Below, one piece after another: positions 5,663-17,800 of a stretch of DNA of 64,000 nucleotides; within the stretch, counting starts at the first letter, position 1, and each line of letters opens with the position of its first letter. The stretch lies in the IMG/VR virus record IMGVR_UViG_3300024999_000044, positions 64,001-128,000 of that record, one strand, 5' to 3'. Source of the DNA: a virus. The notes under the pieces are model-generated. The model saw nothing but the letters and a program-made list of their open reading frames with translations, had not been told where the DNA came from and did no database searches. Both the position numbers and the translations under genes were made by a program.

Positions 5663-5760
5663 TCCCATACAGAGAGATATAAACACACCCCTACTCTTGG
5701 ATTAGTGGGGGTATGTTTGTCTTCAAAGGTAAACCATCAAACATTGAGGAGAGTGGATTC

Positions 5761-8070
5761 ATGCCGTATTCCTTATCACCAGAATTTGTATCAAAATACA
5801 GAAATAAAATACCTGATTGGGGTATACTGGGTTGGGAAACCTACAAGAGAACGTACGCACGGTGGATTCAATCTGAACTTAGGTACGAAGAATGGTGGGA
5901 AACCTGTAAAAGAGTTATCGAAGGTAATTTTAATCTAGTGCCCAATGACCCAACATTCACTATGGAAGAGATGGAAACAGCCTATGATTTGATGTTCTAC
6001 TTAATATGGTTACCTCCTGGCAGAGGTTTGTGGGTATCCGGCACTGATTTTGCTAAGAAGCATGGGGATGCCCTAGTCAACTGCTGGTTTATAGCATGTA
6101 GACCGCAACCTTACCTAAAAGGAGAAGAAGCAAAAGTATCATTCCCTTTTGTGTTTATCTTTGACGTATCTATGAAAGGCGGAGGCTCTGGATTTACTGC
6201 TCGTAAGAAAGATGTTAGTTTGATACCAGTGGTGAGTAAAAAGATTAACCTCTTTATAAAGTGTGATGCAAATCACCCAGACTTTAGTATAGATGTCCCC
6301 ACAGCCAAATTGGATTATGGTGTTGTAGATAAAGTGATGCCAACTAAAGGCATATTAATTGGAAAAGTGAACGATTCAAGAGAAGGTTGGTGTGATGCTC
6401 TAAGTTGGGTAATTGATAGCCATTTTGCTGGGTTGTGGGAAGCCAATTTGGTTATTGATATCAGTGACGTACGGGGTTACGGTGAAGAGATAAAAGGATT
6501 CGGTGGGAAGTCTAGTGGCCCTAGATCACTTGTTGAACTTCTGTGTGGGGTAAATGACCTTCTCAATCTTAGGCATCAAGGTAACCTGTCTTCAGTAGAT
6601 GTAGTAGACATAATGAACATGATCGGAAGATGTGTTATTGCTGGTAATGTTCGTAGAACCGCACAACTATCTATTGGAAGTACCGATGACATTGGGTTTA
6701 TGCAAATGAAGGATTTTGGAGTAGTAGATGAAATTTGCCAAACAGACGTTTCAGGTAATTTCATCTGGGAAAATGGGAAACGAGTCTTAAAGCCTATGAA
6801 CATCCTACAGCATCTTTACGAAGAAAAAGAACTTCAGGGGTTAATTTACACCCATCATGCTCAAAGTAATCACAGGTGGTCCTCAAATAACTCATTAATG
6901 GTTACTCCTGAGTTTGATGATTGGAAATTCCTGTCAGATAAGCTAAAGATAAATGGAGAACCTGGGTACATTAATGAGTACCTCATCCAGAACTATGGGA
7001 GACTGATAGATGGGGTACAAGAAGGTATAGATGGGGAGGCTGAAGGATGCAATGCATGCGTTGAAATAACTCTTGCCAATGGTGAGCCTTGCAACCTGGT
7101 GGAGAATTTTCCCCTCAATATTAACAAAGCTAATAAAGACTACAAGAAGGTCTTAGATATCTCTGCCAGATACGCTTATAGGGTCACTCATTGCATTCAT
7201 GACTGGGAAGTTTCTAGGGATATTGTGTCTAAGAATAGAAGGATTGGTGCCTCCCTGTCGGGTATCCAGGATTGGGTACTTGAAGAATTTGGCGGTGAAG
7301 TATTTACTGGGTGGAAAACTACTAATGGTTTGACTCTACCTACTGGAGTAAATCCACTAGTAGTTAAGGCGTTGGATGACTATTACCATACAATTAAGGA
7401 ATCCGCCACCAAATACGCTAAAGCACTGGGCACTAACACCCCTATAAAATTTACAACAGTCAAACCATCTGGTACAATATCACTGCTAGTGGGTGCCTCA
7501 CCTGGTATGCACTGGCACTATTTTGGGTATGGGATACGTAGAATGCGATTCCAAATGGATGACATGTTACTTCCAATACTCAAACAAGCAGGTTATTACA
7601 TGGAACCCGATATAAAGGTGCCAAATACCATGGTTGTTGAGTTCCCTGTAAAAGCATGCACGGCGGACCATCCTAAATTTAGATCCGCCGGACAAGTACC
7701 AATCTATGAGCAATTTGCTTTCCAAGCTTTGTTATCTGAATACTGGGCAGACAACTCTGTCTCCTGCACCATAACTTTTCAGCCCGAAGAAGCAGATCAG
7801 TTAGAGGGACTATTAAGACATTATAGCACTAAGATTAAGGCCACCACATGCTTACCATATAAAAATCATGGGTATGCTCAGGCACCTTATGAACCTTATT
7901 CAGAGAAGGATGGGAAAAGTCCCAAACAGCAATACGAGGAAGCTCTATCCAAAATAACAGATAGGCCAGTGGATATTTATACTAGGCTTCACCTAAGTGA
8001 TAATGCTAAGGAAGAGCTGGAAGCAATATTAGGCTCTGACTGTACTACAGGGGCCTGCCCAATACGATAG
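5761..8070 (+). CDS. ribonucleotide reductase, class II (NrdJ)-like
   Basis: 'LVNCWFIA' (SCF-like), 'GGGSGFTARK' (GGGxG...R block), 'NACVEITL' (N-x-C-x-E active-site loop) followed by 'EPCNLVENFPLNI' (CNLGSINL-like), C-terminal Cys pair 'CTTGACP'; start moved to MPYSL after gaggag RBS (track start 5713). Confidence 0.6.
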   Translation: MPYSLSPEFVSKYRNKIPDWGILGWETYKRTYARWIQSELRYEEWWETCKRVIEGNFNLVPNDPTFTMEEMETAYDLMFYLIWLPPGRGLWVSGTDFAKKHGDALVNCWFIACRPQPYLKGEEAKVSFPFVFIFDVSMKGGGSGFTARKKDVSLIPVVSKKINLFIKCDANHPDFSIDVPTAKLDYGVVDKVMPTKGILIGKVNDSREGWCDALSWVIDSHFAGLWEANLVIDISDVRGYGEEIKGFGGKSSGPRSLVELLCGVNDLLNLRHQGNLSSVDVVDIMNMIGRCVIAGNVRRTAQLSIGSTDDIGFMQMKDFGVVDEICQTDVSGNFIWENGKRVLKPMNILQHLYEEKELQGLIYTHHAQSNHRWSSNNSLMVTPEFDDWKFLSDKLKINGEPGYINEYLIQNYGRLIDGVQEGIDGEAEGCNACVEITLANGEPCNLVENFPLNINKANKDYKKVLDISARYAYRVTHCIHDWEVSRDIVSKNRRIGASLSGIQDWVLEEFGGEVFTGWKTTNGLTLPTGVNPLVVKALDDYYHTIKESATKYAKALGTNTPIKFTTVKPSGTISLLVGASPGMHWHYFGYGIRRMRFQMDDMLLPILKQAGYYMEPDIKVPNTMVVEFPVKACTADHPKFRSAGQVPIYEQFAFQALLSEYWADNSVSCTITFQPEEADQLEGLLRHYSTKIKATTCLPYKNHGYAQAPYEPYSEKDGKSPKQQYEEALSKITDRPVDIYTRLHLSDNAKEELEAILGSDCTTGACPIR

Positions 8071-8707: not shown

Positions 8708-8721
8708 GAGTTACTTAAAAT

Positions 8722-8758
8722 AAGACTGGGCATATGCCCCGTCTTATTTTTGTTTTTA
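8722..8758 (+). terminator. Rho-independent terminator
   Basis: hairpin aagactgggcat/atgccccgtctt followed by atttttgttttt. Confidence 0.55.
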
Positions 8759-8784
8759 GACTTAATGAATACTGAGGAGGTGCC

Positions 8785-11709
8785 TTGTTGATGAGGTTTT
8801 ACATAGATGTAGTAAAAGGGGAAGAAGGTAAGTCTATTGGACCACGTAGACTCCATAAAGAGAGATTAGTAAGAAGGATGGTTCAGGTAAAGGGGAAAAA
8901 TGGAGGGACTTACTCCCGCATGCAATGGGTAGACCCACGTGGAGATACGCCCTCACAAAAGCACTCTAGTACGGAATCAGATACTAAGGATGCCCATCCC
9001 CATGACAGTGACCTAAAAGACCAGGTGCACAAGCTAGTGAGTAAAATGAGCAAAGAGGAGAAATATCAGTGGTTAGACAAACATGGCATACAGTGGAAAA
9101 GGAATGATCATCCCAACACTGACCACATAGAGGCAGTAAAGGCTTTAAAAAAGTTTCTTAATGAAAACCCTCATCACCTTGATTTGGAGCACTTATCAAA
9201 AAGAGGTGGTAATGAATTAGACATAGAATCTGAGTCTGATAAACTCATGAATCCTGTTGACAAATTGATAAACAGAAAGTCTAAGCAAGAGAAGTGGGAT
9301 CTCATATCTAAATATGGAGTACAGTGGAAGGAAAACTCCAATGATAAAATAAACCAGATGCGTGCTTTCTCAGCACTGAAGCAATATTTAAAGGAAAATC
9401 TGGAATTAGCTGGGTTGTCTAAAGAAGATTTTGATAAGGCTAACGCCATGGGGGATGAAGTTGAAAGGGTAGGACAAATAGGGGAATTAGTGAAGAAAAT
9501 GAGCCCCAAATTAAAGTTAGGTCTTGCCAAGCAGTATAAGATAGAGCCTGAACCTACTGGGGACAGTAACATTGATAACATAAACCGCACTAAAGCTATT
9601 ACCAAGTTTTTAAGTGAGGATGCTAAAGAGCTAGAGTTCATTAAGAGTAAGCTAGAAAAACATGAATTAAAAAACATGAAGATTTCCGTCAAGGAAATGA
9701 TGGCTATAATACGAAGACTTGGTAAATTAACCCCTAGAGAGATAAAAGCTTCAAAAGAGGATAAAGAATGGACATTCAATGACGCATCTATGGCATCTAT
9801 TAATGAGGATGACAATGGTAATCCTGTTCTATCCATTATAGATGGGGAGCATGGTAAGTGGGAAGTTAAGGACATACTCCTAAAGGATGTTAAAATCTTT
9901 TTAGATGGTTTAGATGAAACTAAGGCTAAGGCTAAAGAAGCCCCTAAGTATGGTAAAGATGACATAGTGGGATTGTTGAAGACAATGTTTGATAAACCAC
10001 AAGTTAAGAAGATGGCAGAAGGATTATGGATCTTTAGATCTAAAGATGGATCCACGGGTCAAGTAGAAATAACCTCGGAGGGGGTTACCTTTAGTAGGAC
10101 TGATAAGGATTGGGAGCGTACCTGGGAACACGATGAGGTAGAAGAAGTCCTAGAGAGGTACCACAGACCCCTACATGAAAAGTCAGTGCATGATATAAAA
10201 GAAGCTCTGGAAGATGACCCTGAACTATATAAAGGTAGGGTTAAGAAGAGAATAGAGGATAGTGTACGAGACGATATATTTAAGCATGAGGGCACTTATG
10301 GAAGATATGACTCTACAACCCTATATGCGGATGCGACCTTCGGTACTGAGCTATTAAAAACAGTGGCAAAAGAACATGCTTTTTGGGACCCCAATACTGA
10401 AGATTTAGATATACGTTCTGATGAATTTAGTGAATTTATGTACAAATCACTAGTAGATCCTGAAAAATCTAAGAATGCTATGGATTATGTTGTCACTACT
10501 TTTGGGGAAGACAACCCATGGGTATTAAAGGAGTCTGCTAAGAACTGGGAACCCATAGAGCGCAGAAAAGCTAGAAAAGAGATGTGGTCTAGCCATGGTA
10601 GAGTATCCCTAATGTTTCCTAATGATGTCAGAGGACAAATATCCAAACATTTTAACATAGTTACGGGTCATCTACCTTTTGATATCATTACCGATACGCT
10701 AATAAAACATGGGTTATCAATTAAGGCTCCAACCTCTGATAAAGAGGATAGCCCTATATTCTCTTACGATTTTAACGATCATCAAATAACTTTACCTTAC
10801 ACTTGCACAGAAGATGCTGATTTCCTTGAAACCGAAGACCCCTATGAATTCCACCCCAGTGTATCTATAGATGGAAGGTCTTATAAGGATAGTAGCCTAG
10901 GATCAACTTTAACACATGAATTTGGTCATGCTATAGATCATTTCTTTGCTGGCGGAGGGTCTAATACCATGACTCATTGGCAGGGTAGTAAAGAGGCTAT
11001 GAAGTATTTAGGTAAACATAGTAATGCTTTGTTTGAATCTTATTCTAAGTCCTTAGGAGAGGCAACTGGGAATAGTGGTAGTGGGAGCCCCTGCTCCAAA
11101 AGAGGAAACTATTATGTTCATGAGGATAACTTTCTTTCCCCGTATGAGGGGAGAATATACGGCCCCACCAACAAAGAGACAGGTCTACCAGTTGGCCTTG
11201 TAGCTACAAGCTATTCTTCTAATAATGTCATTGATACCACTTTTAAGGGCGCAACAAAACCTCCCAAAGGTGTAATTTGGGGTTGCGAACACTGGTCAGA
11301 AAGTGTATCAAAATATTCCTCTGCTGCTCATCATTATTTTAAATATATGCAGGAGACTAAGGGACAAGAAGATTCTAAATCGTTCCCCCAGTGGTGCACA
11401 GAAGGATCTAAGAAATACCACGAAGTAAAGGTCAACTTTGACTCTAAGAATGAGTTGGAGAGTGCCCACCCAGATTTACACAGTGCATTCAGATACAAAC
11501 ACCTAGAGCAACACCACCCTATAATGGCAGATGCAATAGACCACTTATTAAATAGGGGAGATTTCCCTCCAAAACTAGGCGGTAACGAGGTACGTACTAG
11601 GTACACAACTAGAATAGGACCTAACAAAAAGGGGCAAGGCAGAAGGTCCAATGCGCCAACTATTATGCCTAAAACAGCCAAATCCTTAACTTTTTATGTA
11701 AGGAGCTAA
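8785..11709 (+). CDS. giant protein with HExxH zinc-metallopeptidase motif and internal sequence repeats (candidate internal/ejected virion protein)
   Basis: 974 aa; 'THEFGHAIDH'; two repeats of 'K(Y/W)..L.K(H/Y)G(I/V)QWK.N...'; N-terminal 'KNGGTYSRMQWVDPRG' motif shared with the 12094 ORF; immediately upstream of the portal. Confidence 0.6.
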   Translation: MLMRFYIDVVKGEEGKSIGPRRLHKERLVRRMVQVKGKNGGTYSRMQWVDPRGDTPSQKHSSTESDTKDAHPHDSDLKDQVHKLVSKMSKEEKYQWLDKHGIQWKRNDHPNTDHIEAVKALKKFLNENPHHLDLEHLSKRGGNELDIESESDKLMNPVDKLINRKSKQEKWDLISKYGVQWKENSNDKINQMRAFSALKQYLKENLELAGLSKEDFDKANAMGDEVERVGQIGELVKKMSPKLKLGLAKQYKIEPEPTGDSNIDNINRTKAITKFLSEDAKELEFIKSKLEKHELKNMKISVKEMMAIIRRLGKLTPREIKASKEDKEWTFNDASMASINEDDNGNPVLSIIDGEHGKWEVKDILLKDVKIFLDGLDETKAKAKEAPKYGKDDIVGLLKTMFDKPQVKKMAEGLWIFRSKDGSTGQVEITSEGVTFSRTDKDWERTWEHDEVEEVLERYHRPLHEKSVHDIKEALEDDPELYKGRVKKRIEDSVRDDIFKHEGTYGRYDSTTLYADATFGTELLKTVAKEHAFWDPNTEDLDIRSDEFSEFMYKSLVDPEKSKNAMDYVVTTFGEDNPWVLKESAKNWEPIERRKARKEMWSSHGRVSLMFPNDVRGQISKHFNIVTGHLPFDIITDTLIKHGLSIKAPTSDKEDSPIFSYDFNDHQITLPYTCTEDADFLETEDPYEFHPSVSIDGRSYKDSSLGSTLTHEFGHAIDHFFAGGGSNTMTHWQGSKEAMKYLGKHSNALFESYSKSLGEATGNSGSGSPCSKRGNYYVHEDNFLSPYEGRIYGPTNKETGLPVGLVATSYSSNNVIDTTFKGATKPPKGVIWGCEHWSESVSKYSSAAHHYFKYMQETKGQEDSKSFPQWCTEGSKKYHEVKVNFDSKNELESAHPDLHSAFRYKHLEQHHPIMADAIDHLLNRGDFPPKLGGNEVRTRYTTRIGPNKKGQGRRSNAPTIMPKTAKSLTFYVRS

Positions 11710-11713
11710 TAAT

Positions 11714-12082
11714 ATGAGGATCAAACTCAGTGGCATAAATGAGGAAACTGGTAAGGCTCAGAATGGTTATATATTTTACAATCCTGATACCTCAGAAGTA
11801 TTGATCACATATCCTGATGACATTGAGAGGAAGAGGTTGTATCGATACCTCACTACACCTCAGTTACTCACCCATGGCATACCCCTTGGACAGTCTGACT
11901 CTGATTTCATAGGCCATCACAAGAAGCCAGATACACCCTCAGACAGCACTGAACTATTGTTGCATGCTTTAAGTGACATGCAGGGGTGGATTTCCATAGC
12001 AGCGGATTGGAGAAATCCTGTGTATGATGATCATAGTACTTTAAAGTCTTTAAAAGGTGACACGATATACAAATTAATATAG
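11714..12082 (+). CDS. hypothetical protein
   Basis: 122-aa ORF, RBS aaggag upstream. Confidence 0.5.
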   Translation: MRIKLSGINEETGKAQNGYIFYNPDTSEVLITYPDDIERKRLYRYLTTPQLLTHGIPLGQSDSDFIGHHKKPDTPSDSTELLLHALSDMQGWISIAADWRNPVYDDHSTLKSLKGDTIYKLI

Positions 12083-12093
12083 GGGGTGACTTT

Positions 12094-12705
12094 ATGCCTT
12101 GCAATAAAAATAAGTTACTATTTCTAATACCATTAGATGACTTTATATTTAAGGCGGGAGGCGGTAGGGGAGGACTGATTCAGTCTATTGTAACCTATGT
12201 TCGTAATGGCCACACCATCACTAGAAAACAATGGGTAAGAAGTGAGTTTGAGAAGCATGCTAAAAAGGATGAGGAAGAAAAGCGCGAAACCATACTCCGT
12301 ATGAAAGAGCGTGAAAAGAATAAGAAGAAAAAGGATCTAACAGAGGCCCAGGAGATAGCTGATAGAAAGGGTGCTAGATCCGCTAAAAAGCTTCATCGTG
12401 AAGACAAAGAGCGTCAATCTAAAGGGCACCAATCGAAACCTAAGACTAGTATAGTGTCAGATAGCGAAAGAGAGAAACTGCGTAAGTTAAAAGAGCAGGA
12501 TCAAGAAAATAAGGTTTCTAGAGAGGAAGAAGAGTCTAAAAGGAAAAAGTTGCAAGATGATAATTCTAAAGAGCAGGAGCATCAAAAGGATAAGGAACTC
12601 AGGGATAAAAAGACTAATGACACTAAATCTAAAACTTCAGATAAGAAAAAGAAATCTAAGATAAGAACAGGTAAGCAGAAGGGGACAGAGCAGGCAATAG
12701 TATAA
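12094..12705 (+). CDS. highly charged K/E/R-rich low-complexity protein (possible DNA-associated internal protein)
   Basis: 203 aa; C-terminal 150 aa almost entirely K/E/R/D/S; N-terminal 'VRNGHTITRKQWVR' motif. Confidence 0.5.
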   Translation: MPCNKNKLLFLIPLDDFIFKAGGGRGGLIQSIVTYVRNGHTITRKQWVRSEFEKHAKKDEEEKRETILRMKEREKNKKKKDLTEAQEIADRKGARSAKKLHREDKERQSKGHQSKPKTSIVSDSEREKLRKLKEQDQENKVSREEEESKRKKLQDDNSKEQEHQKDKELRDKKTNDTKSKTSDKKKKSKIRTGKQKGTEQAIV

Positions 12706-12822: not shown

Positions 12823-14388
12823 GTGGGAATTTTTAGTAACTTATCTAAGGCATTTTGGATTGGTAGCCCTTCAAAGGTAGACAACATTCCCATAGCTTCA
12901 GACGATATATCTAAATCTGAAAGGATACAAGAATCTAAGGCTGTAATTGAAGATCCGCTACGCCTAGTTAGCCAGTTGGGGTATAAAGATAGACCCAGTT
13001 CTATAACTTATGATACCTTAAAGAAGATGTCATCTAGAAACTCTGTGGTAGCATCCGTGATATTAACCCGTGTAAACCAAATATCCTCATTTTCCCAACC
13101 TGCCAGATTTACTAATGATGGGATCGGATTCCAAATCCGTCTAAGAGACCCTAAAAAGAGCCCTACAGAGCAACAAAGACAAGTCATGCTTGCCTTGGAA
13201 CTTTTTCTTGAAAAATGTGGGTTCTCCAATAATCCAGCTAGAGACTCCTTTGACTCATTTCTGCGTAAAGTGGTAAGAGACTCGCTAGTATACGATCAAG
13301 TTACTTTTGAGATAGTTCCAGATAGAATAGGTAGGCCAGCGGAATTTTATGCTGTAGATGCCTCCACTATACGTTCAGCCACTATGAAAAACGAAGAATC
13401 CGTTGTTGCGGGGGGACATGTAACTTTTACTGATATGGAGGATGATGGGTTTGGGTGGGTGCAGGTTGTAGACGGGGTGATTGTATCTAAGTTCACTCCT
13501 TTAGAGCTAGCTTTTGGTGTTAGAAATCCCCGCACTGATATTCTTATTCAACCCTACGGATTCTCTGAATTAGAGATGCTTATAAACCAAATAACCGCCC
13601 ACTTATGGGCTGAGGAGTATAACTCAAAGTTCTTCTCTCAAGGAGGTACTACGAAAGGTATTCTAAATCTCAAAGGGCAAGACATCACCAAGGAGCAGTT
13701 AGATGCTTTCCGTAGACAATGGACTGCTCAAGTATCCGGCATGATGGGTGCTTGGAAGACACCTGTAGTTTCAGTAGAAGGTCTGGAGTACATTAATGTC
13801 TCTCAGAGCAATAGAGAGATGGAATTCGAAATGTGGATGAATTACCTAATAAATATAGTGTCTGCTGTTTATCAGATAGATCCATCAGAAATCAACTTCC
13901 CAAATAGGGGGGGTTCTGGTGGGGGATCTTCAGGTATCATGGAAGGTGGTATGGAGTCTAGGCTAAAGAACTCTAAAGACAAAGGATTAAGACCACTATT
14001 AAGGTTCCTTGAAGCCACTATAAACCAGAACATTATATATAGATTCAGCCAGGAGTACACTTTTAACTTTGTAGGGTTGGATCAAGAAACAGAATCAGAA
14101 AAAGCGGAGCTAAATGAAAAGCTAGTTCGTACCCGTAAAACCATTAACGAGATACGTAAGGAAAATGATGATCCCCCAATAGAAGGTGGGGAGATTATAC
14201 TAGATCCCACATACACTAATTATCTACTGCAAAAACAGCAAGCAGAACAAATGCAGCAGCAGCAAGAAGACCCCAATGCCCCTCCAGTAGATGGAGAAGA
14301 GCAAGAAGAGATTAGTCCGGAAGAACAACAAGAACAGGAGGAAACCAAACAGATTGAAGATAGCATAGGACAAAACTACGAAGGGTAA
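12823..14388 (+). CDS. portal protein
   Basis: 521 aa; position immediately upstream of the prohead protease, scaffold and capsid genes; acidic Q/E-rich C-terminal tail typical of portals; GTG start after aaggaggt. Confidence 0.65.
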
Positions 14389-14432: not shown

Positions 14433-15197
14433 ATGGAGGTGAATATCTTGTATGACGATATGTTTAGATTCCACCTAGATGCAGATGTAGAGAAGTCAAG
14501 TGAACACGGAGAAGAAATACGTCTTATCAAAGGATATGCCTCTACTCCTGAGGAGGATAGACAAGGTGAGACTATGATGCATAAAGGATTGGATATTACT
14601 AATTTTTTGAACCATGGATTTTTTAACTACGATCATGATAATAGCCAGATATTGGGATACCCACTACCACCAACGCGTGTAGATGAGATAGGCATGTATG
14701 TGGAAGGAACCCTGTTAAAAGGGGTTGAGATGGCAGACCGCATGTGGAATTTAGCCCTCTCCCTAAGAAAATCCAGGGCACCTAGAAATGTAGGGTTCTC
14801 TGTAGAAGGGAAGATTATACAAAGGGAAGGTACTAGAATCTTAAAAGCTAAAATATACAATGTAGCTATAACCACTAATCCAGTTAACACTAACTGTACT
14901 TGGGATGCTATAGTGAAATCTTTTCAAGGTGACTATAATCTTGATAAGTCCCTAGATGCAGGGCATGCAATCAACCCCTTAGAAATGGATGGTGGTAGTG
15001 TCTTTCGTGAGGAAGACTTAGAGAAACAACTTCATAATTTATCATATGTGATAGGTGATGAGGCAAACAAGAAAATTCTTAAACAGAAGCTCTCAACTAA
15101 AAAGTCCTTTACAAAATCCGAGCTGGTGCTATACCTCCAGCTAACTAAAGGTTGGTCTTACGGCAAGTGTATGAACTTTGCTAACACTATTAACTAG
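14433..15197 (+). CDS. prohead maturation protease (HK97/U35-like)
   Basis: 'IKGYASTPEEDRQGETM' motif and gene order portal-protease-scaffold-capsid. Confidence 0.65.
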   Translation: MEVNILYDDMFRFHLDADVEKSSEHGEEIRLIKGYASTPEEDRQGETMMHKGLDITNFLNHGFFNYDHDNSQILGYPLPPTRVDEIGMYVEGTLLKGVEMADRMWNLALSLRKSRAPRNVGFSVEGKIIQREGTRILKAKIYNVAITTNPVNTNCTWDAIVKSFQGDYNLDKSLDAGHAINPLEMDGGSVFREEDLEKQLHNLSYVIGDEANKKILKQKLSTKKSFTKSELVLYLQLTKGWSYGKCMNFANTIN

Positions 15198-15210
15198 GAG
15201 GTGCACCCCT

Positions 15211-15945
15211 GTGGCTAAATTGGATGACATCATTGCTAAGTCCCTAGAAGACTTAGATCAACTGGCTAGTGAGGCCGGTACTAATCTTATTGTAAAAGCT
15301 GAACCGCAGCCTAATGAAATCTCAGATAATGCTCCCGACGAAGAGGAGGAAGACTCTGAAACTCCTACTGAAGAAGCTGAGGAGGGACAAGAGGGTGAAG
15401 AGGACGAGATGGACGAAGACGAGCCAGGGGAGGATGCGGAGAAATCGCTAGAAGATGAGCTCACCTCGGATGATAGTGTCCGTAAAGCCTTAGAGGTTAG
15501 TGAGTTCCTAGCAGGATTGATTAAGGGACTCTCTGCTGTATTGGATGGTCAGAAGGATTCTCTTAATAAATCCTTAGAAGCCTCTACACAAAGCTCAGAA
15601 ATACTGGCCAAATCCTTCCAAGGTATTCTCAAGTCACAACGTGCTGTACTAGAAACTCAATCTGAGTTATCAAAGTCCATTCGTAGACTCAGTAAACGTA
15701 TGGAAACTATTGAGTCCCAACCACAAGCACGAAAATCTGTAACCAGTGTGGTCGAAAAATCTTTTAAGGCTAGCATAGGAGATAATGCTCCAGCCACGCT
15801 TAGTAAATCAGAAGTTCTAGCCAAACTTACTCTCGCCCATGGGGCAGGTAATCATGCTTTACTGAATGACATCTTGTCATATGAATCAATGGGTGACATG
15901 AGGGTACTATCTCCCGAGGCCATGGCTATCGTAACTGGCAAATAA
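15211..15945 (+). CDS. scaffolding protein
   Basis: Very acidic E/D-rich N-terminus, predicted coiled coil, located between protease and capsid; start moved to GTG after taggaggtg (track start 15178). Confidence 0.55.
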   Translation: MAKLDDIIAKSLEDLDQLASEAGTNLIVKAEPQPNEISDNAPDEEEEDSETPTEEAEEGQEGEEDEMDEDEPGEDAEKSLEDELTSDDSVRKALEVSEFLAGLIKGLSAVLDGQKDSLNKSLEASTQSSEILAKSFQGILKSQRAVLETQSELSKSIRRLSKRMETIESQPQARKSVTSVVEKSFKASIGDNAPATLSKSEVLAKLTLAHGAGNHALLNDILSYESMGDMRVLSPEAMAIVTGK

Positions 15946-15965: not shown

Positions 15966-17384
15966 ATGGTAGGTTTGAGCGATTATCAGAATGGAATTAA
16001 TGGCTTTGGTATGGCATCTCAATCAGATGTGGATGCACTTAATAAGGCTTTAACTGCCGGGTACGAGGTAAATCCCCTATCTCTGACAGGTGGGGGAGCT
16101 TTCCGGGTGGAGTCCTTAGAAAATAGCCTAAAAGTCCTCACATATAGTGATCAACATATCAAAATGTGGAAGAAAATTCCTAAAACACCAGCATATTCTA
16201 CTGTGGAACAATACGGTCAACAATTGGACTATGGGCGTGAAGGTGGGGGATTCGTTGGTGAAGGTGGTTTGCCCGACTCCAATGATAGCACCTACGTACG
16301 TAAAGCTGCATTCGTCAAGTTCATGGGTACGACCCGTGAAGTCAGCCACCCGATGACACTTGTAAACAGTGCGTTCGGTAATGTAGTTGCTAAACAAAAT
16401 CAAGATGGTATCTTGTGGCTCTTGAAGAAGGTGGAACAATCCTTATTCTGGGGTAACTCCAAATTGGCACCTGGAGGTAACGAGGGTCTTGAGTGGGATG
16501 GCTTAGTCAACATGATTGATTCTGGCAACGTAATCGACCTTGCTGGGCAATACCTGGAGGAGAAACACATTAACTGGGGAGCTCAAATGCTCATTCAGAA
16601 CTTTGGTACTCCTTCTGATCTATACTTACCCTTTGAGGTAATGGCCCAATTCAGCGAGGCATTTTTCCCTAAAGAACGTGTATTGATGCCCACTAATACC
16701 GGCTATCAAGCAGGTGTAATGGTTAACAAGTTCATGACTCATGGTGGGGAAGTGGAGTTTAATCCTAATATCTTCTTAACTAAAACTCGCCCCATCAACT
16801 CCAATGCTACCAGTCTTAAATCCCCTGCTGTGGGCAGCATCGCTAGTGCTATAGTTGCATTGGCCACAGACGGAAGATTTGGCACCACTGGTGCGGGCAC
16901 ATACAAATACGCAGTAACTTTTTGCAATTCCCATGGTGATTCCATCCCTAGTAATGTTGAGTCTGTTGTGCTTGCTGGTGGGGATCTTGTTAAGAATGTT
17001 ACCATCACTGCCACCAATCCGGCATCCACGGCATTCCCTATTGAATTTATGAAGGTATACCGCAGTGAAAAAGATGGAACTGTCCTTTATGAGATTGCCA
17101 AACTTGCCGTTACTAGCTCTGCTGGTGGGGCTGTGACCGTCTTCACCGATAAGAACTCTATTCTTCCTAACACCTATTCAGCCTTTATGGGCGAGATGAG
17201 TCCTGAAGTCATTGCTTTTAAACAACTCGCCCCTATGATGAAAATGGATCTAGCAACACTGGGACCAGTGATACGCTGGATGGTGCTTATGTATGGAGTT
17301 CCCATCTTGTATGCCCCCAAGAAATGGATGCGTTATGTAAATATCAAAGCTGATGTCCCCAGCTTCCTAGGGTCGGGCATGTAA
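15966..17384 (+). CDS. major capsid protein (HK97 fold expected)
   Basis: 472 aa directly after the scaffold; followed by a hairpin; typical position and size. Confidence 0.65.
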   Translation: MVGLSDYQNGINGFGMASQSDVDALNKALTAGYEVNPLSLTGGGAFRVESLENSLKVLTYSDQHIKMWKKIPKTPAYSTVEQYGQQLDYGREGGGFVGEGGLPDSNDSTYVRKAAFVKFMGTTREVSHPMTLVNSAFGNVVAKQNQDGILWLLKKVEQSLFWGNSKLAPGGNEGLEWDGLVNMIDSGNVIDLAGQYLEEKHINWGAQMLIQNFGTPSDLYLPFEVMAQFSEAFFPKERVLMPTNTGYQAGVMVNKFMTHGGEVEFNPNIFLTKTRPINSNATSLKSPAVGSIASAIVALATDGRFGTTGAGTYKYAVTFCNSHGDSIPSNVESVVLAGGDLVKNVTITATNPASTAFPIEFMKVYRSEKDGTVLYEIAKLAVTSSAGGAVTVFTDKNSILPNTYSAFMGEMSPEVIAFKQLAPMMKMDLATLGPVIRWMVLMYGVPILYAPKKWMRYVNIKADVPSFLGSGM

Positions 17385-17461: not shown

Positions 17462-17800
17462 TTGTCTAAAGTACTAAACATTGGATTTGCTGGTAAAGAA
17501 GTAACATTTTCATGTGGATCAATAAGTTTTGATGAAAATGGCGTGGGTGAAATTACCGATGAAGAGATTTATAAGGGTGTTATTAAATTGCCTAACTTCA
17601 CACCTGTTGTAGAACCTGTTGTAGAACCTGTTGTAGAACCTGTTGTAGAACCTGTTGTAGAACCTGTTGTAGAACCTGTTGTAGAACCTGTTGTAGAACC
17701 TGTCACCCTCACTGCTACAGAACCTACAACAGCAAAACAAGTTACAGAGCAGGTAAAAGCGAAGCTTGTTGCCCACGCTTCCATCAAGACTAAAAGATAG
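17462..17800 (+). CDS. small protein with PVVE tandem repeats (possible head decoration/fibre protein)
   Basis: 112 aa; 8 perfect copies of PVVE encoded by a 12-bp DNA tandem repeat. Confidence 0.5.
   Translation: MSKVLNIGFAGKEVTFSCGSISFDENGVGEITDEEIYKGVIKLPNFTPVVEPVVEPVVEPVVEPVVEPVVEPVVEPVVEPVTLTATEPTTAKQVTEQVKAKLVAHASIKTKR
17603..17710 (+). repeat. 12-bp tandem repeat cctgttgtagaa x8 plus one degenerate unit, in-frame (PVVE)n
   Basis: read directly in sequence. Confidence 0.95.

Follow-up and report, generated by a model that had tools for sequence, protein, structure and literature searches.

Why would two proteins of very different size, encoded just upstream of the head genes of one phage, share a short N-terminal motif? 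The question is raised by 64,000 nt of viral DNA (positions 64,001–128,000 of IMG/VR record IMGVR_UViG_3300024999_000044), which we call the window and to which coordinates refer; it is part of an SPO1-like myophage of the Herelleviridae, Spounavirinae type. A first-pass annotation had described two open reading frames (ORFs), one for a giant protein of 974 amino acids (aa) and one for a basic protein of 203 aa, both located 5′ of the portal, protease, scaffold and capsid genes, and had read their common motif as a capsid-targeting signal for proteins ejected with the DNA. Both ORFs are contained in the ORF list, and Pfam and PHROGs assignments support the gene order (Table 1). Here, we describe the motif as part of a larger module, trace this module through other proteins and genomes, and weigh what it may do.

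A two-part module in two portal-adjacent protein families

The motif is present in both proteins, although its numbering had to be revised: it spans residues 38–53 of the giant protein rather than 35–50, and residues 36–51 of the small protein rather than 28–42, corresponding to offsets of 3 and 8. In a pairwise comparison the likeness is marginal (BLASTP, 7 identities in 12 residues, E = 0.049), and by itself this value would leave room for coincidence, one of the proteins being large and the other of low complexity. The two families speak against this. RMQWVDP is invariant in 9/9 homologues of the giant protein and TR[KR]QWVRS in all 15 homologues of the small one, such that the similarity persists in the alignments, where the first-pass annotation had expected a spurious resemblance to disappear. 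Profile–profile comparison of the two N-terminal regions with hhalign gave a probability of 93.4% (E = 2.5e-7, 38 columns), and the match takes in a second element further towards the N-terminus. With a joint profile, both families are retrieved together with hundreds of further proteins, and PHROG profiles of one module family match the other families. Owing to the profile–profile match and the retrieval by the joint profile, we exclude chance as an explanation for all practical purposes. Within the window, the full motif pattern is found in the six-frame translation only in these two genes.

Judged from these comparisons, the giant and the small family share a homologous module that consists of two elements. 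The first, E1, is a short hydrophobic strand of the type LYIDLxK[GAS], ending in a nearly invariant lysine that is followed by G, A or S; it reads FYIDVVKG in the giant protein and DDFIFKA in the small one. The second, E2, is a basic β-hairpin, its pattern being KLVKKxVQVxGKNGKxFTRMQWV in the family of the giant protein and GLIQQIVTYVRDGRTITRKQWV in that of the small one. In the AlphaFold 2 (AF2) model of the giant protein, strands 27–34 and 40–47 fall exactly on this hairpin, with a predicted local distance difference test (pLDDT) score of 50–60; in the small protein, the hairpin (strands 28–37 and 40–49) is predicted with a pLDDT of 81–86. The earlier picture of a peptide of about 15 residues, comparable to the T4 capsid targeting sequence, thus gives way to a two-part module of about 45 residues, which often lies behind a leader of 25–110 residues or in the interior of a protein. 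Pfam and NCBIfam have no entry for the module, which occurs in PHROGs only inside unannotated whole-protein families; none of the three offers an informative family for the module or for the giant protein.

Position, distribution and payloads of the module

To place the module in its genomic context, we scanned 26 IMG/VR loci retrieved with it, together with phage and metagenome loci (designated L with a number), using a module hidden Markov model (HMM) and BLAST with the head proteins of the window. In about 30 of about 30 related loci with enough context, two to three tandem module genes lie immediately 5′ of the genes for portal, protease, scaffold and major capsid protein (MCP), and in every one of them the direct upstream neighbour of the portal gene encodes the small K/E-rich protein. 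The search among head-proximal ORFs of related phages that had been proposed in the first-pass annotation finds, in these loci, module genes beside the portal. The accessory genes of this cassette vary, encoding GNAT-like proteins of about 440–466 aa, zincin giants of about 1000–1100 aa, a 1014-aa ParB/ADP-ribosyltransferase (ART) protein and others of 548–570 aa. The equivalent order is gp27-gp28-gp29-gp30-portal in CP-51, gp60–63-portal in vB_EalM-132 and gp5.3-portal in SPO1. As the gp5.3-type protein is the only module carrier found in SPO1-type genomes, from which the accessory module genes are missing, we regard it as the core of the system.

On two soil metagenome contigs of high GC content (Ga0247824_10004635 and Ga0247822_10007922; L038, 894–4319, and L039, 968–4393), module and portal are joined in a single protein of 1141 aa. 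Its portal domain (phrog_21, residues 198–584, E = 3e-36; Pfam Phage_portal_2, E = 9e-8) is followed by an acidic linker, the hairpin DLVQRDVTYHRGGQTFTRKQWV at residues 605–633, further sequence and a degenerate second hairpin at residues 930–952. The hairpin at 605–633 scores 30 bits with the module HMM and is independently matched by phrog_25452, the CP-51 gp27 family (E = 7e-5). Since the C-terminus of portal proteins faces the capsid interior, the fusion puts hairpin and payload inside the head at the portal, which argues for a location in the head and is not proof that the hairpin is a targeting element.

A search of 1.84 billion representative proteins with the module profile of 46 positions yielded 313 clusters at E ≤ 1e-3 and 91 at E ≤ 1e-10. 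The proteins are 66–1502 aa long and carry the module at residues 1–45, behind their leader or internally, a few of them in two to three copies; a single genome encodes two to five separate module proteins. A further carrier is encoded directly 5′ of the giant gene in relatives (CP-51 gp27, JL gp86 and EalM-132 gp60, about 430 aa), with the module at its start and, in CP-51 gp27, a C-terminal domain with a weak GNAT-like match; EalM-132 also has a module gene directly after the large terminase. A sub-family with the pattern AILKSLP...QKEVQVxGKNG was found in none of the IMG/VR or GTDB genomes, and five metagenome loci were recovered for it.

Most payloads are without a Pfam match, and as single-linkage clustering merged nearly all of them, no payload classes were taken from clustering. 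The Pfam domains that do occur are RadC/JAB, ParB_N, 2H phosphoesterase, DUF6582, DUF5661, CBM_4_9 and, in 7 of the 89 proteins scanned, DUF3626, which we take to be, with SopF, an ART. DUF3626 is the family of this Salmonella effector (PMC6682159). Large proteins combining ParB_N, an internal module and DUF3626 are found in JL (gp68) and EalM-132 (gp44), and other paralogous module proteins combine RadC with DUF6582 and further domains. A fusion of the module with a Zeta toxin (E = 1e-33) is encoded on metagenome contig L036 (3004–4014); a large terminase of the gpA type follows 2.4 kb downstream. Domain types of this kind have been predicted to be packaged and injected, partly on the ground that they also occur in fusions with MuF or portal domains (Iyer et al. 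2017, PMC5512222); the module payloads correspond to the domain repertoire of the polyvalent and MuF-linked effectors for which injection was predicted there. As separate observations, the phage with the module–Zeta fusion is unrelated to SPO1, and at a further locus, L037 (3–1913 and 2517–2903), a PARP-catalytic-domain protein is encoded directly upstream of a module protein.

The carriers, candidate cleavage sites and the surrounding locus

The giant protein belongs to the family of CP-51 gp28, JL gp87 and vB_EalM-132 gp61, to which it is similar over its full length: tblastn matches in CP-51, JL, Shanette, EalM-132 and S4-1 span 83–96% of the query, and a Foldseek search of BFVD matched JL gp87 with E = 7e-40. 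By this protein, Exiguobacterium phage vB_EalM-132 and Bacillus phages CP-51, JL, Shanette and S4-1 are the closest sequenced phages (26–31% identity). Translation probably begins at ATG 8791, 11 nt after the ribosome-binding site GAGGAGG at 8773–8779, which gives a protein of 972 aa. It comprises one recognizable enzymatic domain, repeats and an unassigned β domain. The two internal repeats noticed earlier hold up (41% identity over 58 aa, E = 1e-14) and are possibly SAP/HeH-like. The HEFGHAIDH site, which had been described as zincin-like, belongs to a genuine zincin with a lethal factor/ATLF-like fold. It is of the gluzincin type, with an invariant HExxH helix and a downstream helix that provides a glutamate as third zinc ligand, and its fold is similar to that of ATLF (peptidase M34). 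The sequence likeness to lethal factor, ATLF and the related peptidases PPEP-1/2/3 is limited to the HExxH helix: in a domain-profile search of PDB sequences, lethal factor and PPEP appeared only at E = 0.8–1.9 and confined to this helix, and a profile of the whole giant protein matched nothing among them. Unlike in anthrax lethal factor, where HExxH and the second motif are about 45 residues apart, the spacing to EHWSE is about 120 residues, and there is an additional invariant YEGRIY. Two homologues of the giant protein (P0001 and P0003; L006, 8001–11267) carry a precomputed match to PF26856, Phage_SPO1_gp51, which is only faint.

The 203-aa protein belongs to the family of SPO1 gp5.3 and CP-51 gp30, as seen from tblastn matches in CP-51, JL, EalM-132 and SPO1 (E = 4e-13 to 8e-8) and from the same portal-adjacent position; its N-terminus is 63–75% identical in 26 SPO1-like and CP-51-like phages (tblastn). 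No function is assigned to this family in the records and literature searched. In the literature, the Goe2/Goe3 paper contains no proteomics, and the outline of the paper on the phage 812 neck lists no internal head protein. With an isoelectric point of 9.9 and a net charge of +21, the protein is K/E/R-rich and basic, as had been noted, but it is not merely of low complexity: the hairpin is followed by two long predicted helices (residues 51–110 and 123–179, pLDDT up to 95), family members share an invariant RSEFxxHAKKxEEEK after the hairpin, and many end in [FY]GQxDQT[KR]ADNK. The most economical reading is that it is probably an internal, DNA-associated head or portal-proximal protein, the main alternative being a portal-specific assembly factor. 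A role as small terminase was rejected in view of the shared module and of EalM-132, where the large terminase gene has another location and a small gene of its own upstream.

Between these two genes lies a 122-aa gene of the CP-51 gp29 family that travels with the zincin gene. Among the loci screened, homologues occur only where the giant zincin gene is present (the window, L006, L009, L021 and L032), with diverged copies in CP-51 and EalM-132, while L027–L031, which are without the zincin, have none. The protein is without a Pfam, PHROG or NCBIfam match, and two homologues of it are all that the database contains. It may assist the peptidase as a chaperone or inhibit it, and is possibly itself a protease substrate. 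Its conserved C-terminal PILKSLxGDxxYxIIN shows the same layout of a K-S dipeptide and a hydrophobic strand as the tail of the giant protein. In most homologues of the latter, this tail takes the form RKS..L.VIEL (for example RKSDLPLVIEL), NKSIVIHL or NKSLGLFVDL, against AKSLTFYVRS in the window, and it contains the only conserved K-S of the giant protein. The layout matches that of E1, and from the sequences we infer a related meaning.

K-S dipeptides are also conspicuous in the head genes. Among 50 window genes, they are enriched, four- to fivefold, only in the scaffold (9 against 2.1 expected) and in the prohead protease (6 against 1.2; each p < 0.0005 by shuffling). An alignment of six divergent relatives, including L001–L004 and L006, contains ten invariant K[S/A] columns in the scaffold and six in the protease; the portal protein has an xKSE about 30 residues from its N-terminus, kept in 6/6 relatives, and the MCP an invariant LNK↓AL near its N-terminus (arrows mark presumed cuts). 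The HK97 capsid protein is cut at K103/S104 by a protease of the same S78 family (PMC10275583). The K-S excess and the invariant K[S/A] positions suggest that the protease of the window has a K↓S/A cleavage specificity as in HK97. Of 78 module proteins with a leader or an internal module, 66 have a K-S just before E1, against a background of 0.20. With this K-S in front of E1 and K[GAS] at its end, cleavage by the prohead protease could thus release the element or expose it. An E1-like strand also occurs in the C-terminal tail of the protease itself. A loose E1 pattern, designed post hoc, matches 2 of the 50 window proteins with 0.23 expected, namely the giant protein (at aa 3) and this tail.

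The protease further carries a duplicate of the MCP site and its downstream segment (LDK↓SLDAGH.INP...). As an observation in its own right, a segment of about 30 residues, L[DN]K[SA]L.AG[HY].[IV]NPL...GG..FR.E.LE, is common to the protease (14937–15029) and the MCP (16029–16121), and through it the MCP matches the protease family in PHROGs (E = 1e-7). It looks like a duplicated cleavage site and N-arm, and might serve to dock the protease in the shell.

Along the window, the cassette follows a class II ribonucleotide reductase gene (5713–8070) and a few small ORFs. It is separated from the upstream genes by a terminator-like hairpin with an RNA folding energy of −18.1 kcal/mol (z = −3.5, 0/200 shuffles equally good); a single mismatched stem position kept it out of the result of a simple consensus terminator scan. 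In vB_EalM-132, annotated terminators flank the cassette at corresponding positions. By eye, nothing convincing of an SPO1-type late promoter consensus was seen 5′ of the cassette, and a sigma-70 scan returned fewer sites than expected by chance. The scaffold ORF as listed (TTG 15178) overlaps the 3′ end of the protease gene, and alignment with relatives indicates that its true start is probably near 15211 (VAKLDDIIAKS...).

Two further observations concern the flanks of the locus. The ribonucleotide reductase 5′ of the cassette differs from phage to phage, being B12-dependent class II in the window, class I NrdE/NrdF in SPO1 and EalM-132, and anaerobic NrdD with its activase in L006 (L001, 1775–5301; L002, 4195–7525; L006, 4884–7238), so that its class is swapped at a fixed position among related phages. 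Directly 3′ of the capsid gene, the ORF 17462–17800 contains eight perfect tandem VVEP (PVVE) units; these may act as a proline-rich spacer, and the product may be a decoration or connector protein of the head.

Table 1. Features of the cassette and the adjoining head genes in the window
Feature	Position	Strand	Remarks
Terminator-like hairpin and U-run	8717–8750	+	between 83-aa ORF and giant gene; separates upstream genes from cassette
Giant protein gene	8785–11709	+	974 aa from TTG 8785; phrog_23829, E = 1e-68
N-terminal module of giant protein, aa 1–54	8791–8952	+	module HMM match at aa 3–56
E1 strand FYIDVVKG, giant protein	8797–8820	+	part of N-terminal module
E2 basic β-hairpin LVRRMVQVKGKNGGTYSRMQWVDP, giant protein	8866–8937	+	part of N-terminal module
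Helical repeat region, aa 75–310	9013–9720	+	contains repeats 9058–9174 and 9283–9393
C-terminal zincin domain, aa ~447–920	10129–11550	+	invariant HEFGHAID, YEGRIY, EHWSE
HEFGHAID	10915–10938	+	invariant; D716 is the Asp three residues after HExxH
YEGRIY	11143–11160	+	invariant motif of zincin domain
EHWSE	11287–11301	+	invariant motif of zincin domain
C-terminal tail KSLTFYVRS, giant protein	11680–11706	+	K-S dipeptide, then short hydrophobic E1-like strand
122-aa gene, CP-51 gp29 family	11714–12082	+	travels with zincin gene
203-aa basic protein, SPO1 gp5.3/CP-51 gp30 family	12094–12705	+	phrog_27686, E = 3e-20
Diverged module, aa 8–50 of 203-aa protein	12115–12243	+	hairpin 12175–12240
Two long charged helices of 203-aa protein	12244–12630	+	follow the hairpin
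Portal protein	12823–14388	+	Pfam Phage_portal, E = 4.5e-27; phrog_12, E = 2.8e-72
Prohead serine protease, S78, HK97 type	14433–15197	+	Pfam Peptidase_S78, E = 2.7e-5; phrog_1028, E = 8e-90
E1-like LYLQLTKG in protease C-terminal tail	15129–15152	+	aa 233 of 254; conserved in relatives
Scaffolding protein	15178–15945	+	phrog_15087, E = 4.7e-55
Major capsid protein, SU10-type HK97 fold	15966–17384	+	Pfam SU10_MCP, E = 1.6e-8; phrog_752, E = 1.7e-141

Proposed carriage in the head and its alternatives

On balance, we lean towards the reading that the module marks proteins for carriage in the phage head. SPO1/CP-51-like phages would then encode, directly 5′ of the portal, a conserved cassette of module-tagged proteins, in which the module would take its carrier into the procapsid, to the portal or its vicinity, such that the carrier would be packaged with the DNA and leave with it at infection. 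In this process, E1, bracketed by K↓[S/A/G], may serve for targeting and then be removed, as the T4 capsid targeting sequence is. E2, which is too small to fold alone, would stay on the mature protein and bind at the portal crown, either by adding a strand or by forming a ring, or else bind DNA. The gp5.3-family protein would be the universal core member, probably an internal, head- or portal-associated DNA-binding protein. The 972-aa protein would be accessory cargo, combining possibly SAP-like, putatively DNA-binding repeats with a lethal-factor-like zinc metallopeptidase that would either process cargo or attack host proteins after injection, possibly with the 122-aa protein as its chaperone or inhibitor. 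Of the capsid-targeting signal proposed in the first-pass annotation, the common functional signal is thus borne out by the homology of the module, its 313 clusters, the synteny with the portal and the portal fusion, whereas targeting by the module and presence in the virion are predicted. A more specific version of the proposal is tentative, and we consider it doubtful as a whole: a loading system independent of MuF, in which E1, shared with the tail of the prohead protease, would drive encapsidation and be clipped at K↓S by the S78 protease, E2 and the gp5.3-like protein would form a complex at the portal crown and DNA end, and exchangeable toxins would be injected with or ahead of the DNA. 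With the same reservation, its toxins might comprise the lethal-factor-like zincin, the SopF-like ART, the Zeta kinase, a ParB nuclease and the GNAT protein; if this version held, about 45 added residues could suffice to load any protein into SPO1-like heads.

Several points weigh against carriage in the head. The presence of both proteins in virions is predicted from comparison. The hairpin of the giant protein is modelled with low confidence, and its catalytic domain matched neither the Pfam ATLF family (E ≤ 0.1) nor, with Foldseek, any PDB structure. The resemblance of E1 to the protease tail and the model of K↓S sites were both formulated after seeing the data and on short patterns, and the giant protein as a whole is not enriched in K-S (9 against 8.75 expected). 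A pure portal-binding tag would be redundant in a covalent portal fusion, which therefore supports a location inside the head rather than a targeting role of E2 in particular.

The hairpin is also very basic, and the cargo includes putative DNA-binding parts (SAP-like repeats, ParB and the K/E-rich helices), so that a nucleic-acid-binding role fits equally well. The module could accordingly be a β-ribbon that binds nucleic acids, DNA ends or the packaging substrate, its carriers being present in the head only passively on the DNA, or not at all. We consider this rather unlikely: a general DNA-binding role would require neither the strict adjacency to portal and head genes nor the portal fusion, many payloads are protein- or nicotinamide adenine dinucleotide (NAD)-directed toxins (ART, Zeta kinase, zincin) and not DNA enzymes, and internal copies of the module are nearly always preceded by a K-S at which processing would make them new N-termini. 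Less probable again, and in our estimate clearly unlikely, is that the cassette encodes morphogenetic factors, with the module as an assembly interface that is discarded before packaging, such that nothing of it is found in mature virions. In this case, one would expect the small protein to serve the portal specifically, as its scaffold or chaperone, and the zincin to act as a protease in maturation or assembly. It would suit the scaffold-like prediction of long charged helices in the small protein, whose gene adjoins the portal and is kept even in SPO1, which is without accessory module genes, as well as the K↓S-type sites flanking E1 and the terminal tails, which resemble substrates of the prohead protease. 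However, a dedicated scaffold and an S78 protease are already encoded, the small and giant proteins are not enriched in K-S as the degraded scaffold is, and the variable toxin-type payloads (ART, Zeta, ParB, JAB) are typical of injected effectors (PMC5512222) and have no rationale in assembly. Carriage in the head consequently remains the best supported reading, ahead of a DNA-binding hairpin without a sorting role and, in third place, a discarded assembly interface.

Among known systems, several offer parallels. The N-terminal domain of MuF and SPP1 gp7 reportedly carries polymorphic toxins in phage heads, as Jamet and colleagues are said to have described in 2017. Like MuF, the module is a conserved, portal-adjacent domain with swappable effectors (ART, RNase, 2H, kinases), occasional fusion to the portal and predicted cargo loading (PMC5512222). 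Unlike MuF, a globular domain of about 110 residues encoded 3′ of the portal, it comprises only a strand and a hairpin of about 45 residues, is encoded 5′ of the portal, occurs two to five times per genome on separate proteins and has no sequence relation to MuF; in scans of more than 110 module proteins, Pfam Phage_Mu_F gave no match. The T4 capsid targeting sequence is an N-terminal tag of about 10 residues on the internal proteins IPI–III and Alt that is cut off by the prohead protease. The module likewise tags unrelated proteins, with an E1 of about 9 residues ending in K↓[GAS] that has the same size and layout, and the putative cargo, like that of T4, includes a basic DNA-associated protein and an enzyme effector. 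Its hairpin of 25–30 residues is without a T4 counterpart, the module often lies behind a long leader or internally, and the cleavage predicted here would be carried out by an S78 (HK97-type) protease with presumed K↓S specificity, whereas T4 gp21 cuts at L/I-x-E. Polyvalent proteins (PMC5512222) are likewise large late-gene products encoded beside virion genes, with lethal-factor-like zincins that have an Asp three residues after HExxH; the giant protein shares both this context and the Asp, D716, which is invariant. Polyvalent proteins unite at least two unrelated effector or enzymatic domains in one chain, whereas a single enzymatic domain is recognizable in the giant protein. The combination of ParB and ART in its paralogues JL gp68 and EalM-132 gp44 also resembles polyvalent proteins and P1 Dar, although Pfam PolyVal and LPD models matched none of the module proteins scanned.

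Proteins injected with the DNA, such as T4 Alt and the internal proteins, P1 Dar, the N4 vRNAP and MuF toxins, are the first weapons of a phage against host defences, and to our knowledge their sorting into heads is understood for only a few model phages. MuF toxins, the T4 targeting sequence, P1 Dar and polyvalent proteins already exemplify such a loading strategy; what the present analysis adds is the module itself, which is compact, defined by sequence, present in more than 300 protein clusters, adjacent to head genes and joined to toxin-type enzymes. If it is a loading tag, it would provide a simple rule for predicting which proteins are injected by SPO1/CP-51-like Bacillus phages and by other phages that are unclassified, and would make the lethal-factor-like protease, the SopF-like ADP-ribosyltransferase and the Zeta kinase candidate effectors of host takeover or anti-defence. 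It would also be a small handle for loading foreign proteins into the heads of phages of Gram-positive bacteria.

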